Virus genome (UHGV): UHGV-0179208
Reading direction: 5' to 3' (one strand)
DNA: 12,964 bases
From: a virus
The notes beneath the pieces are model-generated. The model saw only the letters and a list, made by a program, of their open reading frames with translations, had not been told where the DNA came from and ran no database searches. Below are positions 1,169 through 12,916 of this stretch, one piece after another. Position 1 is the stretch's first letter. Every line of letters starts with the position of its first letter. The translations under genes and the position numbers were made by a program.

Positions 1169-1206
1169 AGTTATTTCTCACTTGTTAAAAAGATTTTATA
1201 CTCCGC

Positions 1207-1241
1207 GGGACCATTATACTCTGGTCCCAAGAGTTTGTAAA
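1207..1241 (-). promoter_or_regulatory. sigma70-like early promoter candidate (minus strand TTTACA-17-TATAAT) overlapping a 7-bp-stem hairpin
   Basis: Minus-strand TATAAT = plus 1213..1218; TTTACA = plus 1236..1241; 17-nt spacer. Inverted repeat gggacca (1207..1213) / tggtccc (1222..1228) puts the -10 hexamer in the loop. Sits 40-70 nt upstream of the ATG at 1168. Confidence 0.4.
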
Positions 1242-1679
1242 CTAGCTTACACGAACATTAATCACTGCGCTGCGAGGAACTACGGAGTACTCTCCAGCAT
1301 GAACTACATTAAGAAGTTCAACGCCATCTTCAATCCACTGGTCAGTTACCCAACCGCCAATCGGATTCGCGAATGGACGACGAATATAAACTGCCTTACA
1401 CAACAAATCAGTCGGGTCTTCAGGTTTTTCAATTTCTGTCAATAGACTAAAATCTTTTTCATAAATAATAAGCGGTGATACCATTCCATAATAGTTTCTA
1501 ATTTCAATATACATCATACCGATAAGAATTCCGCTATTAACACTAATAACAGTAAAAGGATATCCGCCAGTTAAACCAAGAAGTTCACAAAACTTATTAT
1601 GAGCTGTATTAGACAGTACAGAAAAATTCTTAATTTCATCAAATTTTTTCAATTGATAAACAGCATTATTTTTAATCAT
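1242..1679 (-). CDS. hypothetical protein, 145 aa; paralog of the C-terminal half of the 162-aa ORF downstream (motB.1 position)
   Basis: ORF track. Shares TDQW(V/I)EDGV(K/E)L(Y/L)NVV...G(T/E)Y.V(I/V)P with ORF 680..1168. ATG at 1679..1677. Confidence 0.65.
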   Translation of the reverse strand: MIKNNAVYQLKKFDEIKNFSVLSNTAHNKFCELLGLTGGYPFTVISVNSGILIGMMYIEIRNYYGMVSPLIIYEKDFSLLTEIEKPEDPTDLLCKAVYIRRPFANPIGGWVTDQWIEDGVELLNVVHAGEYSVVPRSAVINVRVS

Positions 1680-2253: not shown

Positions 2254-2937
2254 TTATCGTTTTGTTGGAAGAGATAGAGGATCGCACTCTTCCTCTGACG
2301 GAGCATCTTCAAGACCCATAGCATACCGCAAAGCATACTTCATCATCAGGATGTCTTTCGCACAGTCATGAATAGAATCATGTACAACGAATCCATCTAA
2401 AGTTCCCTTTGGAAGAGGACACGTGGTCATATCACGAACAAGCAGAAGTGCTTCAATTCTGGTACGAATATCACGTTGATTCCAGAATTTACATGGTTCT
2501 AACTTAAATGTGTCAAGTTCATTCTCGGAAACGCCGTTAAGACGCTGAATATCGCGAATGAGATCGACTAAAATTGGAAAATCAAACGACATTCCACGGC
2601 ACCAGCCTTGAGATTTCCAAGGATCGATGTTATGTGCATTGATGTAATCATTAAATTTTGCAATACCATCGATAGTGCTTACATCTTCATCTGATGGTGC
2701 AATATTTTTTCGAGCTTCAGGAGACTGATTTTTCCACCATTCGATAGTGCTTTTAGTAAAAAGACGATGTCCTTTTTGGCTTTTTAAATCAAACTTGATT
2801 TTAATGCCGCGTGAAACTAATTCATCAAATGTTTCAACTACTTCTGGATTAGGGTCAAAGGCAATAACAGCCAAATCAATAACAGCTGCCTTTTCACCGC
2901 TTCCCATTGTTTCAAAATCTATAATAAAATCAAACAT
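2254..2937 (-). CDS. dexA: DexA, 3'->5' DNA exonuclease A (DEDD family), 227 aa
   Basis: ORF track. N-terminal DFETMG exonuclease motif (Exo I D-x-E); 227 aa equals T4 DexA; located downstream of dda as in T4. Confidence 0.8.
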   Translation of the reverse strand: MFDFIIDFETMGSGEKAAVIDLAVIAFDPNPEVVETFDELVSRGIKIKFDLKSQKGHRLFTKSTIEWWKNQSPEARKNIAPSDEDVSTIDGIAKFNDYINAHNIDPWKSQGWCRGMSFDFPILVDLIRDIQRLNGVSENELDTFKLEPCKFWNQRDIRTRIEALLLVRDMTTCPLPKGTLDGFVVHDSIHDCAKDILMMKYALRYAMGLEDAPSEEECDPLSLPTKR

Positions 2938-9620: not shown

Positions 9621-9628
9621 TATTTATA
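9621..9628 (-). promoter_or_regulatory. T4 late promoter core TATAAATA upstream of soc
   Basis: Plus tatttata at 9621..9628 = minus TATAAATA, 32 nt upstream of the soc ATG (9589). The only exact TATAAATA I found on the minus strand. Overlaps the stop of the HNH gene. Confidence 0.7.
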
Positions 9629-10460
9629 ATCCATTTTCAAATCTCTTTATCATGTTTATATAATTTTCGTCAGGATAACCTAGGCTAACTGCTAGTTTTC
9701 TAAAATTGACATATTTAGGTTTGTTGTTATTAATCCATAATTCTCTAAGCTCTTTTTCATAATTCCATTTAAGTTGATTTCTGCGTGCAGTTTTGCTTAA
9801 AGTTTTTCCTTTAGCTTTTAAAGCTTTTTCAGATGACTGTTTTAATTTTTGAATATTTAAAACTTCTTCTATAGATAAATTATTTTCCTTTGAATATCTT
9901 ATGCAAAAATCTTTTACTGCGGCTATTAGGCAATTTTTGTGAGTACCTAAAATTTCTGGGTTATTTTCTTCAACTAAAATTCCCCAATATCTTCGGTAGC
10001 GAGGCATATCTCTTGAAATCCAGTCATTATACCAAAAATCAAAGTTGGAATACATGAAAGATTTTCTTTTACGAAGAGTATCTTGGTTTATCCATTGCTC
10101 ACGTTTATCAGCCCATAACTTAATAGTAAAGTCTTTTTCTGAGTCAGAAAGCTTCTTAAATTGTGAGCTATTTACTGAGGTCATTCTCTGGAATGCATTC
10201 AGCAATCCAAATCTTCCAGTTGAACATAAGAGATAGTGAACATATATGTGTTGATATATTGGGAGATATACTCTATTCCAAGGATGTATTTTAAAATCAC
10301 TATACTCAGGAAATGCGCATTTAGGAAGTATATGATGGGCTTCTGTTTTAGATTTGATGTGAGTGTTTAACTTATATTTATCTATAATTTTTAAGTACTC
10401 ATCTAAAAGTTCCCATTGCGGGAACTTTTCTTTAAGAGCGGATTTGAAATTAATATCCAT
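9624..10460 (-). CDS. HNH-family freestanding homing endonuclease (about 278 aa from the ATG at 10460; ORF track starts at a TTG at 10475)
   Basis: ORF track 9624..10475. HNH motif EAHHILPKC...N.V.L....H...H. C-terminal about 45 aa are about 50% identical to the C-terminus of ORF 10970..11620. Weak Shine-Dalgarno. Start overlaps the 3' end of gene 56. Confidence 0.75.
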   Translation of the reverse strand: MDINFKSALKEKFPQWELLDEYLKIIDKYKLNTHIKSKTEAHHILPKCAFPEYSDFKIHPWNRVYLPIYQHIYVHYLLCSTGRFGLLNAFQRMTSVNSSQFKKLSDSEKDFTIKLWADKREQWINQDTLRKRKSFMYSNFDFWYNDWISRDMPRYRRYWGILVEENNPEILGTHKNCLIAAVKDFCIRYSKENNLSIEEVLNIQKLKQSSEKALKAKGKTLSKTARRNQLKWNYEKELRELWINNNKPKYVNFRKLAVSLGYPDENYINMIKRFENGL

Positions 10461-10968
10461 TATCTTGACGTTCAAAATTATGTTTGTTCTTCAAATAATA
10501 AAGTTTAAAGATTTCTTCAGCCGTAAGACCAAGACCTTGGAACATGTTCAGAACGAAATGAAGAATATCAATCATTTCGAATTTAATTTCCAACTGGTCT
10601 TGTGGAGACAAATCAGTAATCAGAGTTTCACGACGTTCACCATGTTGAGCTTTCCAAGGCTTCCATACAGCAGATGCATCTTTTTCGCCATTGCTCATAC
10701 CACCAAGAGATGTCAGATGTTCACGGAATTCATCATCAATGTAATCTTTCTGATTACGCAGCCAATCAACAACTTCACCAGCAGTAGTCAAATCATCAGG
10801 ATGACGATTATATTCAGGTTTATCTTTAGCTAAACGAACCTGTAGAGATTTCTGCATATCAAGCATAACCTGCAGCGGGTCTTTTTCGTCACCGAGAATA
10901 TCCCAATATTCATTTTGAGCTTTATCTGCACCAGCGATCAGTTGACTACATTCGTTGAAATGTGGCAT
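10450..10968 (-). CDS. 56: dCTP pyrophosphatase (dCTPase-dUTPase, MazG-like), 172 aa
   Basis: ORF track. Size (T4 gp56 is 171 aa as recalled) and position between soc and gene 61. ATG at 10968..10966 preceded by AGGAAA. Sequence not verified by alignment. Confidence 0.7.
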   Translation of the reverse strand: MPHFNECSQLIAGADKAQNEYWDILGDEKDPLQVMLDMQKSLQVRLAKDKPEYNRHPDDLTTAGEVVDWLRNQKDYIDDEFREHLTSLGGMSNGEKDASAVWKPWKAQHGERRETLITDLSPQDQLEIKFEMIDILHFVLNMFQGLGLTAEEIFKLYYLKNKHNFERQDNGY

Positions 10969-10969
10969 G

Positions 10970-11620
10970 TTATTTTTCCTTTCTTATGAAGTTTTCTATC
11001 ATATGTCTATAGCAGATATTAGGATAACCTGCCTTGACAGCTATTTTATTAAATTTTGTGCGTTTAGGTCTATTATTATAAACCCATAATTCATAAAGCG
11101 CATCATAACTATTCCATATTTCTCCTCGCCTAGGATTTGGTAAACCATATCGAGGTGAATTTTTACCGCTAAATCTTCCTTTTCGGGCTTTACTCATATT
11201 AGCCTTGGCTTCATCGGATATAATTTTACCTTTATGAGCTAGACGCATTTTGGCTTTAGTTTCTTCTGGGGTCTTTTTGCCTTTAATCCATGACGGCTTG
11301 CCATATCTAGGATTATTTTCACCCGAGAAAAGAACGGAGTTTTGGATTTTAAGGGTTTCTATTAATCTACTTGTTAATTTAACACCTTTATTATATCGCA
11401 TTAAATTTACAGCATAATGCAATCCTCTCACATCTGGATATATTTTAGTTAATAATCTATGAGCTATAAAATGCTCACGCGCAGTTAACTCAACAAGATT
11501 GTTTTTGCCATCTGTTCCTCCCATACATCTAGGAATTATATGATGGCGTTCTTTATATCCGCCAAGATGCCGGCATTTAGCTTTTGTAATTAAAGCCGAG
11601 TAAATTTTTTGGTAATTCAC
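10970..11620 (-). CDS. HNH-family freestanding homing endonuclease, 216 aa, GTG start
   Basis: ORF track. HNH motif ERHHIIPRCMGGTDGKNNLVELTAREHFIAH; repeated NNPRYGK / KNSPRYGLP NUMOD-like modules; C-terminus paralogous to ORF 9624..10460. Start is GTG at 11620..11618 (in-frame stop at 11636..11638). Confidence 0.8.
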   Translation of the reverse strand: MNYQKIYSALITKAKCRHLGGYKERHHIIPRCMGGTDGKNNLVELTAREHFIAHRLLTKIYPDVRGLHYAVNLMRYNKGVKLTSRLIETLKIQNSVLFSGENNPRYGKPSWIKGKKTPEETKAKMRLAHKGKIISDEAKANMSKARKGRFSGKNSPRYGLPNPRRGEIWNSYDALYELWVYNNRPKRTKFNKIAVKAGYPNICYRHMIENFIRKEK

Positions 11621-11653
11621 ATATATCCTTTCAATTCATGGATTAGTAGATCA

Positions 11654-11680
11654 ATTATACAATAAATATATAAAGCAATA
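11654..11680 (-). promoter_or_regulatory. T4 middle (MotA-dependent) promoter candidate: MotA box tatTGCTTTA, 11-nt spacer, TATAAT
   Basis: Minus TGCTTTA = plus 11671..11677; minus TATAAT = plus 11654..11659. Lies 35-60 nt upstream of the GTG of the HNH gene and would also drive gene 56. Confidence 0.5.
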
Positions 11681-11690
11681 AGGAGGACAT

Positions 11691-11891
11691 ATGGTACAAA
11701 AATTAATGGCACTTGTTAATGCCATCAAAGGTAATAAAAAACGTATAGCTTTTACTATTTCTGCTATGATAGGAATTTTACTTTGGAATTTTGTTTTATC
11801 GCCAGTTGCTATTGCTCATGGCGTTAGTATTCCAGTAATTACTCTTGATACATTCGTAGATTTAGCATTTGCTTTAGTTGGGTTAATTTAA
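11691..11891 (+). CDS. plus-strand small hydrophobic protein, 66 aa (two predicted membrane-spanning segments)
   Basis: ORF track. Canonical AAGGAGG at 11680..11686, 4 nt before the ATG at 11691. Hydrophobic stretches IAFTISAMIGILLWNFVLSPVAIA and VITLDTFVDLAFALVGLI. Its stop overlaps the gene 61 stop on the other strand (TTTAAA, 11887..11892). Confidence 0.5.
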   Translation: MVQKLMALVNAIKGNKKRIAFTISAMIGILLWNFVLSPVAIAHGVSIPVITLDTFVDLAFALVGLI

Positions 11892-12916
11892 ATCTTAGCA
11901 TATTTAGATAGCCGCATTTTAGCCATCAACCCTTGGGCAATATTATTTTTCATATATTCCATAATTTGTTCAGGGGTTGCACCTTCCTTTCTAATCATAT
12001 CATTAACATCTTTTGATTTCCAGGGAGATTTATCCCAAAACATAACCCTTTCTCCTGCATCAACTAATTTAGTCATTCGCTTGATAGTGTCAGGATGACG
12101 AGGTTCATTATCTAAAACCCATACACGTCTATCTTTAAATGGAACAATTTCTAGGTCTAATTGACCGCCTGTAATAGCTATACCATTTTCAATAAAAAGC
12201 GAATCTATAGGTCCTTCTAGAACATATACATCACCGTCTTTAACCCGTTCAACACCATAGATTTTTGTTGCCTCAGGATAAGCTTTGATGGTGATATATT
12301 TTTGGGGAGCATCTTTCTTTAATGCACGTCCTTGAAAAGACTCAGCTTTTCCATTAGCATTATAAATTGGAATAACAAGACGAGGCTCAGGTATTTCCTT
12401 TTTATATGTTCCCGGTGCTATGCTATTAACTAATTTAGGCCATTCGGTTGTAAACCAAAGATATTTCCATTTATCCTTTGGAATACAACGAGCTTTTACA
12501 TATTTTATAATTGGATGGTCTTCCGCCAGTTTATCTAATCTAACACATGACGGAAGAGATTTAATTATTTTCTTCTCAGGCTGCTTAGGAAGTTCTTTAG
12601 GTTTTTCTACTGGACGACTTTTACCTTTTTCTTTTCTTATTTCAAAGATATACTCACGATATAAATCAGGTTCAAACTCCTTTAAATATATTCCGATTGG
12701 TGCATGATAGTTACAGTTATAACAATGAATGTTTCCTTCATTATTATCACCATAATACCATCCACGGGCTTTATTTTGGTCGGTTTTTGAATCTCCACAC
12801 ACTGGGCATCTAAACCGCAATTTAAAAGTTGAACTATTATTTACTTGTGTGAATTTAGGTAAATGAGCTAATGCACGATACGCAAACTCATTATCAATCC
12901 AAGCTATTGATGACAT
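11888..12916 (-). CDS. 61: DNA primase gp61, 342 aa (zinc ribbon plus TOPRIM)
   Basis: ORF track. Zinc ribbon CPVCGDSK...CYNCNYH; TOPRIM-like VLEGPIDSLF and VLDNEPR; 342 aa equals T4 gp61. Confidence 0.88.
   Translation of the reverse strand: MSSIAWIDNEFAYRALAHLPKFTQVNNSSTFKLRFRCPVCGDSKTDQNKARGWYYGDNNEGNIHCYNCNYHAPIGIYLKEFEPDLYREYIFEIRKEKGKSRPVEKPKELPKQPEKKIIKSLPSCVRLDKLAEDHPIIKYVKARCIPKDKWKYLWFTTEWPKLVNSIAPGTYKKEIPEPRLVIPIYNANGKAESFQGRALKKDAPQKYITIKAYPEATKIYGVERVKDGDVYVLEGPIDSLFIENGIAITGGQLDLEIVPFKDRRVWVLDNEPRHPDTIKRMTKLVDAGERVMFWDKSPWKSKDVNDMIRKEGATPEQIMEYMKNNIAQGLMAKMRLSKYAKI

Follow-up and report, generated by a model that had tools for sequence, protein, structure and literature searches.

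The closest described relatives of the small gene analysed here are found in phages related to T4. In phage RB69 the homologous protein, RB69ORF029w, is predicted by TMHMM to have one transmembrane (TM) segment at residues 21-41 and no signal peptide, and none of the 31 late promoters predicted in that genome is located at ~16032(+), upstream of its gene (Nolan et al. 2006). The family that comprises these proteins, phrog_2024, is labelled as being of unknown function.

The transcriptional program of T4 provides a framework for considering such a gene. All early and middle transcripts of T4 are counter-clockwise and only late transcripts are of either polarity (PMC2988020, Geiduschek and Kassavetis). 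Late promoters consist of TATAAATA at -13..-6. Position -13 shows little conservation among T4-like phages (PMC1524935), and of the variants that occur naturally in T4, A(-13) is the most frequent (9 of 50 sites; PMC2988020). The consensus for MotA-dependent middle promoters is (a/t)(a/t)(a/t)TGCTTtA at a distance of 12+/-1 bp from TAtaaT (PMC2988021).

Here, we analyse a small open reading frame (ORF) in a stretch of phage DNA of 12,964 nucleotides, referred to as the window. The window is a Tequatrovirus segment with 98% identity to phage IME340 across 2 kb, and its gene order follows that of the T4 early region (motB, dexA, dda, srd, modA/B, mrh, soc, 56, 61), with all of these genes on the minus strand.

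Results

A plus-strand gene in the gap next to the primase gene

A sequence-only reading of the window had drawn attention to a 66-codon plus-strand ORF among genes transcribed from the minus strand. The ORF is located exactly as described, with its ATG at 11691 and its TAA at 11889-11891, it codes for 66 aa, the remaining credible genes of the window are all on the minus strand, and the ORF occupies the only sizeable gap between them (Table 1). Two further features named in that reading are read directly from the DNA: (i) the Shine-Dalgarno (SD) sequence AAGGAGG 4 nt before the ATG, which occurs a single time in all 12,964 bases with both strands counted, and (ii) the overlap, within the palindrome TTTAAA, of the stop codon of the ORF with that of gene 61 (11890..11888 on the minus strand). 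With a total of 12 plus-strand ORFs of 60 aa or more (60-156 aa) in the AT-rich window, the length of the ORF alone is unremarkable. The features that lie above chance are the unique SD sequence, the position in the gap and, above all, conservation under purifying selection.

Table 1. Coordinates of the small gene, its predicted signals and segments, and its neighbours in the window
Feature	Position	Strand	Details
HNH/NUMOD3 homing endonuclease gene, left neighbour	10970..11620	-	phrog_655, E 1.3e-59; Pfam NUMOD3
Predicted MotA-type middle promoter	11654..11680	-	MotA box TATTGCTTTA at 11680..11671, 11-nt spacer, -10 TATAAT at 11659..11654
T4 late-promoter-like box AATAAATA	11661..11668	+	Consensus TATAAATA at -13..-6; A at -13 is a variant; 7/8 match
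Shine-Dalgarno sequence AAGGAGG	11680..11686	+	Followed by ACAT, then ATG (4-nt spacing)
Small protein-coding gene	11691..11891	+	phrog_2024 member, 66 aa: MVQKLMALVNAIKGNKKRIAFTISAMIGILLWNFVLSPVAIAHGVSIPVITLDTFVDLAFALVGLI
Terminator-like hairpin with U-run	11703..11728	-	Within codons 5-13 of the small gene; folding -14 kcal/mol
Predicted transmembrane helix, codons 19-41	11745..11813	+	Carries invariant W32-N33 and P38
Predicted C-terminal amphipathic helix, codons 51-66	11841..11888	+	Conserved D53 and D57; marginal second TM segment
TTTAAA with overlapping convergent stops	11887..11892		Stops of the small gene and gene 61
Gene 61 (DNA primase), convergent neighbour	11888..12916	-	342 aa, 99% identical to T4 gp61

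The predicted protein matches phrog_2024 over its full length (E 1.9e-30; residues 2-66 against positions 1-65 of the 65-position profile), and the same family is matched by all 12 diverse homologs tested. Using tblastn, we find homologs in 696 phage records, including T4 (92% identity), T6 and RB69 (RB69ORF029w, 52%) and, more distantly, Gaprivervirus VR20 (49%) and Kanagawavirus ZX14 (31-40%); with the ZX14 protein as the query, Marfavirus R3_1 and Jiaodavirus KP17 are added to the family. The genera with homologs are Tequatro-, Mosig-, Gapriver-, Kanagawa-, Jiaoda- and Marfavirus, and Enterobacter phage CIP9 may have a homolog as well, as hinted by a structure-search match (30% identity, E 0.6). 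The gene is missing from Krischvirus RB49, in which 14 bp separate genes 56 and 61. With a wider profile, we obtain 117 protein clusters (90% identity), with lengths of 56-73 aa except for a few truncated entries and with no credible functional name among them; where the contigs are of sufficient length, their size is that of T4-like genomes. An exhaustive HMM search of 1.84 billion representatives returns six sequences, all of which are family members or truncated or garbled copies. The identical protein is already public (e.g. AWD91638.1) and present on 170 contigs. Since the gene is already catalogued as phrog_2024, as RB69ORF029w and in hundreds of entries labelled 'hypothetical protein', it is not novel as an entity.

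The situation is different in the reference genome of the group. The T4 homolog is intact at 17738-17938 (+) and has AAGGAGG upstream; in both AF158101.6 and NC_000866.4 the 309 bp from dam to gene 61 (17626-17934) are without an annotated feature. The T4 copy is an unnamed gene missing from this reference annotation, on which published T4 omics studies presumably relied; such studies would not report the small gene, because the annotation lacks it. Our literature searches for Ribo-seq, mapping of transcription start sites, antisense or late transcripts or peptides at the T4 locus returned nothing relevant.

In every locus inspected, the convergent right-hand neighbour of the small gene is the primase gene, usually with overlapping stop codons. 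This arrangement is seen in T4, RB69, VR20/VR25, ZX14, R3_1, KP17, BW-1 and fPS-2, and the counterparts of gene 61 are annotated as primase in the relatives. The stop codons overlap as in the window in T4, RB69 and Marfavirus R3_1, the overlap is longer in ZX14, and there is none in Jiaodavirus KP17, in which an 18-nt gap with a GC hairpin separates the two genes. VR25-type Gapriverviruses have two tandem paralogs, a T4-type gene followed by a ZX14-type gene, the latter overlapping the primase stop; in VR20 this second, primase-proximal ZX14-type paralog is a pseudogene and ~200 bp separate the intact gene from the primase gene. The left neighbour is the HNH gene in the window, dam in T4, gene 56 directly in BW-1 and RB69, and other small ORFs in ZX14 and R3_1. 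In total, these comparisons show that, while its left neighbour varies, the small gene has kept its tail-to-tail position relative to the primase gene in six genera or more.

The small gene is under purifying selection

The match is uninterrupted and covers at least 80% of the protein in 686 of the 696 records. Codon tests were carried out on 26 distinct sequences, including 15 from Tequatrovirus and seven from Mosigvirus, and gave dN/dS values of 0.15 and 0.12, respectively, for these two genera. The pN/pS ratio in the real frame (0.17 in Tequatrovirus and 0.135 in Mosigvirus) is the lowest among the six frames, and variable sites at codon positions 1/2/3 number 10/3/15 in Tequatrovirus and 6/1/19 in Mosigvirus. 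In comparisons between genera, pN is 0.33-0.47 and saturation is reached at synonymous sites (pS 0.67-0.84). Among apparently intact natural copies all indels are in-frame, one of them being a natural deletion of three codons in OE5505. W32, N33, P38, G44, P48 and G64 are invariant in 12 sequences from six genera, even at an overall identity of 22-31%, and a GGAG-type SD sequence precedes the homologous ATG in every genus examined.

These data show that the small ORF is a real gene under purifying selection on its amino acid sequence. The sequence-only reading had held open a chance ORF and had proposed to look at the frame in relatives, at synonymous versus non-synonymous change and at frame-disrupting indels; on all three counts the comparison speaks for a gene, and the conserved SD sequence adds to this. 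A record of a laboratory T4 mutant has lost 2 nt within the small gene and 4 nt within the SD spacer, implying either that the gene is dispensable in culture or that the record contains errors.

The product is predicted to span the membrane once

Residues 1-18 are predicted to form an amphipathic helix with five Lys/Arg; the TM segment that follows is joined to the C-terminal helix by a G-x3-P loop. All sites for cleavage by trypsin fall within residues 1-18. On the Wimley-White octanol scale the best 19-mer has a dG of -10.7 kcal/mol in the window protein and of -6 to -13 kcal/mol in other genera, and the best C-terminal 19-mer reaches only -0.6 to -2 kcal/mol. An AlphaFold2 model built from an alignment of eight sequences (mean pLDDT 78) has helices at residues 2-14, 16-42 and 52-65, with a pLDDT of ~85 for helix 16-42. 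The net charge is +5 at the N-terminus and -2 at the C-terminus in three of the four genera scored, and by the positive-inside rule a topology with one span and the N-terminus inside is the likeliest. The product is, therefore, probably a one-pass membrane protein with an N-in/C-out orientation rather than a two-pass protein.

Earlier, two hydrophobic segments of helix length had been described and a topology prediction had been called for. The first segment (residues ~19-41) stands as a confidently predicted TM helix; the second does not, as the C-terminal stretch scores only marginally and includes two acidic residues. The accompanying proposal of a small membrane protein is supported by hydropathy, by the AlphaFold2 helix and by the TMHMM result on the RB69 homolog. 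The Trp-Asn pair in the middle of the membrane segment together with the Pro/Gly pattern suggests self-association or binding to another membrane protein.

A candidate late promoter and its overlap with minus-strand signals

In each of the 15 distinct upstream contexts examined, the motif ATAAATA precedes the ATG by 16-22 nt and is placed immediately ahead of the SD sequence, and it is kept across genera despite at least six unrelated upstream contexts; in 4-13 kb of flanking sequence the background is one to two occurrences per strand. The box is AATAAATA in the window, in BW-1-type phages and in RB69, and it is an exact TATAAATA in ZX14 (Kanagawavirus) and R3_1 (Marfavirus). In the window the only exact TATAAATA precedes the homolog of soc, which we take to be a late gene as in T4 and which served as a positive control. 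A scan for sigma-70 promoters gave hits no more numerous than in shuffled sequence.

Because clockwise transcripts in T4 are only late, a clockwise gene within the early region is expected to be late, and because the ATAAATA motif matches the T4 late-promoter box, we infer that the small gene is transcribed late from a putative gp55-dependent promoter. The late-promoter-like box is absent from the 2006 RB69 predictions, which counts against a late promoter, and from the annotated records inspected.

At position -13 the box of the T4 copy has a G (GATAAATA) and those of VR20 and KP17 have a C (CATAAATA). G(-13) in T4 and C(-13) in Gapriver- and Jiaodavirus are rarer variants and likewise count against a late promoter.

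The plus-strand box sits within the spacer of the MotA-type promoter, which is predicted to drive the HNH gene and gene 56 on the minus strand; at the equivalent position the fPS-2 record has an annotated 'predicted middle promoter'. In the window this spacer could add a constraint of its own on the sequence around the late box. In T4, dam lies between the small gene and the gene 56 middle promoter, and it is the small gene, not the middle-promoter spacer, that retains ATAAATA.

The 70-bp spacer to the left of the ORF (11621-11690) is homologous to the T4 gene 56 promoter region. The sequence-only reading had placed the ORF where T4 has oriA. The T4 record has oriA within gene 56 (16763), at a distance of ~1 kb from the homolog of the ORF, and names the transcript from the gene 56 promoter as the oriA primer; the ORF, then, is not at oriA, but the adjoining promoter does match that of the T4 oriA transcript. 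No Rfam family and no tRNA is found anywhere in the window.

The minus-strand hairpin inside the small gene is annotated as a terminator in the fPS-2 record and is a possible terminator of gene 61. It is present in the Tequatrovirus sequences folded (window and T4) and is not found in RB69-, VR20- and ZX14-type sequences.

Discussion

Combining the selection data with the predicted topology and the candidate promoter, we consider it rather probable that the small gene, a genuine member of phrog_2024, is transcribed late and codes for a one-pass inner-membrane protein. In this model, (i) RNA polymerase with gp55 would initiate at ~11674, and a 17-nt leader would begin just before the SD sequence, (ii) the 66-aa product would insert in the inner membrane and leave the basic amphipathic helix of its N-terminus (five Lys/Arg) in the cytoplasm, (iii) the last ~25 residues would be periplasmic, with the acidic amphipathic helix resting on the surface of the membrane, and (iv) the protein might act on the envelope late in infection, e.g. 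by tuning lysis timing or membrane integrity, a step that is speculative. That the protein is a non-essential late envelope accessory is our best guess, held with low confidence. A more elaborate version, in which a late, oligomerising inner-membrane peptide functions in lysis timing, lysis inhibition or membrane integrity and in which, jointly, antisense shut-off of the primase is coupled to remodelling of the envelope, strikes us as improbable.

The antisense element of that version can also be considered on its own. No plus-strand intrinsic terminator is found for 2.5 kb downstream of the small gene in Tequatrovirus and, therefore, a late transcript would be antisense to gene 61; conversely, gene 61 has a single terminator-like hairpin, which is found 160 nt into the small ORF, so that complementarity to the gene 61 mRNA would extend over most of the small gene. 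Speculatively, the late transcript of the small gene runs antisense into gene 61 in Tequatrovirus. The main role of the locus could accordingly be exerted at the RNA level, with a late antisense transcript shutting off the primase and the peptide being secondary or, conversely, with read-through from gene 61 acting as an antisense RNA on the small gene in a manner resembling type I toxin-antitoxin systems. The convergence with the primase gene at every locus inspected in six genera, often with overlapping stops, fits such a role, and reviews (among them PMC2988020) record T4 regions that are transcribed from both strands at different times as well as antisense transcription of gene 32. However, selection targets the amino acid sequence, the intergenic GC hairpin in Jiaodavirus would stop read-through, and VR20 keeps an intact gene despite the ~200 bp that separate it from the primase gene after decay of the paralog. 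Given that the hairpin is restricted to Tequatrovirus among the sequences folded and that Jiaodavirus has the GC hairpin, an antisense role would be secondary and lineage-specific. A main role at the RNA level is unlikely in our view, and an RNA-level effect can only be an additional role at most.

Alternatively, the membrane protein could be a lysis protein, i.e. a holin, an antiholin or a pinholin-like protein; a holin-like peptide was among the examples offered by the sequence-only reading. The product is small, membrane-embedded and probably late, it has at least one TM segment (19-41) as holins do, and the polar Asn in this segment could line or pack a pore. The fold search with the AlphaFold2 model against viral structures retrieved only the family itself, in which one member is labelled 'Holin' in UniProt; we rejected this label as unsupported and as contradicted by hundreds of 'hypothetical protein' labels. 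None of 12 members tested matches a Pfam family even at E<=10 and, consequently, there is no match to a holin or an Imm family; NCBIfam likewise gave no match for the small protein, and a search with a sequence profile against the PDB returned nothing credible (best E 0.3, unrelated TM helices). Instead of the hydrophilic, charged C-terminus of holins, the last 24 residues are hydrophobic and acidic, with no Lys/Arg and two Asp, and end in ...ALVGLI, the basic cluster being N-terminal. The two-Met start (M1, M6) is not conserved outside Tequatrovirus. Moreover, T4-type phages already have the holin T, the antiholin RI and spanins. We regard a lysis protein of this kind as quite unlikely, and neither the holin-like example nor the exclusion and toxin-like peptides also named by the sequence-only reading find positive backing in our data. 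We set aside the label 'putative head morphogenesis protein' in the BW-1 record, as the labels next to it are evidently wrong.

That the small gene is cargo of the HNH cassette or, in a different reading, codes for an early superinfection-exclusion or immunity protein is very unlikely. In the window the gene abuts the mobile endonuclease gene, but it is found in 696 records versus 32 with the HNH arrangement and occurs without HNH beside dam in T4 and beside gene 56 in BW-1 and RB69; because the left neighbour varies among phages, the small gene is not endonuclease cargo and this candidate was rejected. In favour of exclusion, another example from the sequence-only reading, Sp and Imm of T4 are both small envelope proteins, with Sp being encoded nearby. 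The lack of a match to the Pfam Imm family stands against it, and the location on the plus strand together with the late-promoter-like motif argues against an early exclusion role, given that this strand is transcribed only late in T4 (PMC2988020).

Finally, we reject as exceedingly unlikely the idea of a chance ORF whose DNA or RNA is conserved as a non-coding 3'UTR or terminator of gene 61 and as a promoter of the downstream gene: plus-strand ORFs of 60-156 aa are frequent in the AT-rich window, the minus-strand hairpin and middle promoter overlap the 5' end of the ORF, and the reference T4 annotation lacks it, but purifying selection is specific to the frame with an excess of third-position changes (dN/dS 0.12-0.15), W-N-x4-P-x5-G-x3-P is invariant at 22-31% overall identity, only in-frame indels occur in apparently intact natural copies, the start codon and SD sequence are kept in every genus examined, and the hairpin, being absent outside Tequatrovirus, does not account for the conservation of the ORF.

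The identification of this gene closes a small annotation gap in that the T4 interval from dam to gene 61, 'empty' in the reference, is occupied by a conserved gene. It is one of very few clockwise genes in the long counter-clockwise early region and, given its own plausible late promoter and the membrane protein that it is predicted to encode, it provides a cheap and well-defined target for knockout and expression experiments. The small gene does not reveal a new kind of system.

The nearest known system is the phrog_2024 family itself, including RB69ORF029w (AAP75931.1) and VR20_029. The window protein shares with these proteins the length (63-69 aa), the convergent position at the 3'-end of the primase gene, the W-N...P...G...P motif and the single predicted TM segment; there is no material difference and the window protein is a member of the family.

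Compared to T4 late genes of the gp55-dependent type, e.g. soc, the small gene has a 7/8 match to the box and an AT-rich segment downstream of it, and its clockwise orientation is that of most T4 late genes. Unlike in these genes, the box overlaps a divergent MotA-dependent middle promoter, and the late promoter is a prediction.

Phage holins and pinholins, e.g. holins of classes II and III, resemble the small protein in being small, with a polar residue in a TM segment, and in residing in the inner membrane late in infection as we predict for the small protein. Whereas holins usually have a basic C-terminal tail, the small protein shows the reverse arrangement, being basic at the N-terminus and both acidic and hydrophobic at the C-terminus, and it probably has a single TM segment.

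Type I toxin-antitoxin loci likewise code for a hydrophobic peptide of less than 70 aa and have an mRNA complementary to a convergent transcript, as predicted here. In these loci the partner is a dedicated sRNA, whereas here it would be the mRNA of the protein-coding gene 61 in a lytic phage. The antisense overlap in the window, which by our predictions would extend from the gene 61 stop to the hairpin (11728..11703), is not conserved in all genera and, unlike in type I toxin-antitoxin loci, has been lost in Jiaodavirus and VR20.

The small gene in T4 and its relatives

Reference T4 carries an intact homolog of the small gene, i.e. of the 66-codon plus-strand ORF that is convergent with primase gene 61 and encodes a predicted membrane protein, and this homolog is preceded by AAGGAGG and GATAAATA. 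The 309-bp dam-61 interval has zero annotated features in this reference (AF158101.6 / NC_000866.4). In the laboratory T4 mutant T4_7t1 (L018, OL964745.1, ~1200..1400), the small gene lacks 2 nt, 4 nt are deleted from the spacer between its SD and ATG, and the dam gene is split; these changes are either sequencing errors or genuine mutations that abolish function in a stretch the phage can do without.

In the VR25-type gapriverviruses the small gene is doubled, with a T4-type copy followed in tandem by a paralog of the type found in the Kanagawavirus ZX14; the second-copy pseudogene of VR20 carries no annotation. Product names in the record of phage BW-1 (OR125554.1, L003) look unreliable: the homologs of T4 61.1 and 61.2 are assigned as 'major capsid protein', the small ORF after them is labelled 'DNA polymerase', and the small gene itself is a 'putative head morphogenesis protein'.

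Coordinates of features in the window and, where named, in related phages
Feature	Location	Strand	Context
Small-gene homolog, intact, 66 codons	T4 AF158101.6 / NC_000866.4 17738..17938 (T4 record L002 3739..3939)	plus	92% identical
Tandem small-gene paralogs	L012 and L014, 2495..2692 + 2701..2901		VR25-type gapriverviruses
Second small-gene copy, pseudogene (ATG TGA, then frameshift)	L006 2201 onward		VR20
Terminator-like hairpin + U-run, for gene 61	11703..11728	minus	within small gene codons 5-13
GC-rich hairpin AGGGGC-TTTG-GCCCCT	L032 2193..2209		KP17 gap between small gene and primase
MotA-box middle promoter, consensus	11654..11680	minus	same 27 bp as late-promoter-like box
Late-promoter-like box	11661..11668	plus	inside middle-promoter spacer
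TATAAATA, exact	9621..9628	minus	31 nt upstream of soc homolog start (9589)
HNH-type homing endonuclease gene, phrog_655	9624..10475	minus	one flank of gene 56
HNH-type homing endonuclease gene, phrog_655, GTG start, NUMOD3 motif	10970..11620	minus	other flank of gene 56

Candidate transcription signals

The terminator-like hairpin lies 160 nt beyond the gene 61 stop. By folding, it is present in the Tequatrovirus sequences (window, T4) and was not found in the folded sequences of other genera. In Jiaodavirus (Klebsiella phage KP17), the small gene and the primase gene end short of each other, leaving an 18-nt gap, and the GC-rich hairpin in this gap could act as a bidirectional terminator. 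To the left of the small gene, oppositely oriented promoter and promoter-like elements overlap, and the region of the middle-promoter spacer is homologous to the T4 gene 56 / oriA-primer promoter region. The single exact occurrence of TATAAATA in the window is that upstream of the soc homolog. Across 54 residues, the product of this homolog shows an identity to T4 Soc of just 56%, compared with 99% identity for the primase.

Homing endonuclease genes

Gene 56 in the window is flanked on both sides by HNH-type genes of phrog_655 (n=2), and the GTG-initiated gene is inserted between gene 56 and its middle promoter. The closest relative, IME340, lacks a gene of the 9624..10475 type but has one of the 10970..11620 type. 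At the site of the former, T4 has the GIY-YIG endonuclease segF.
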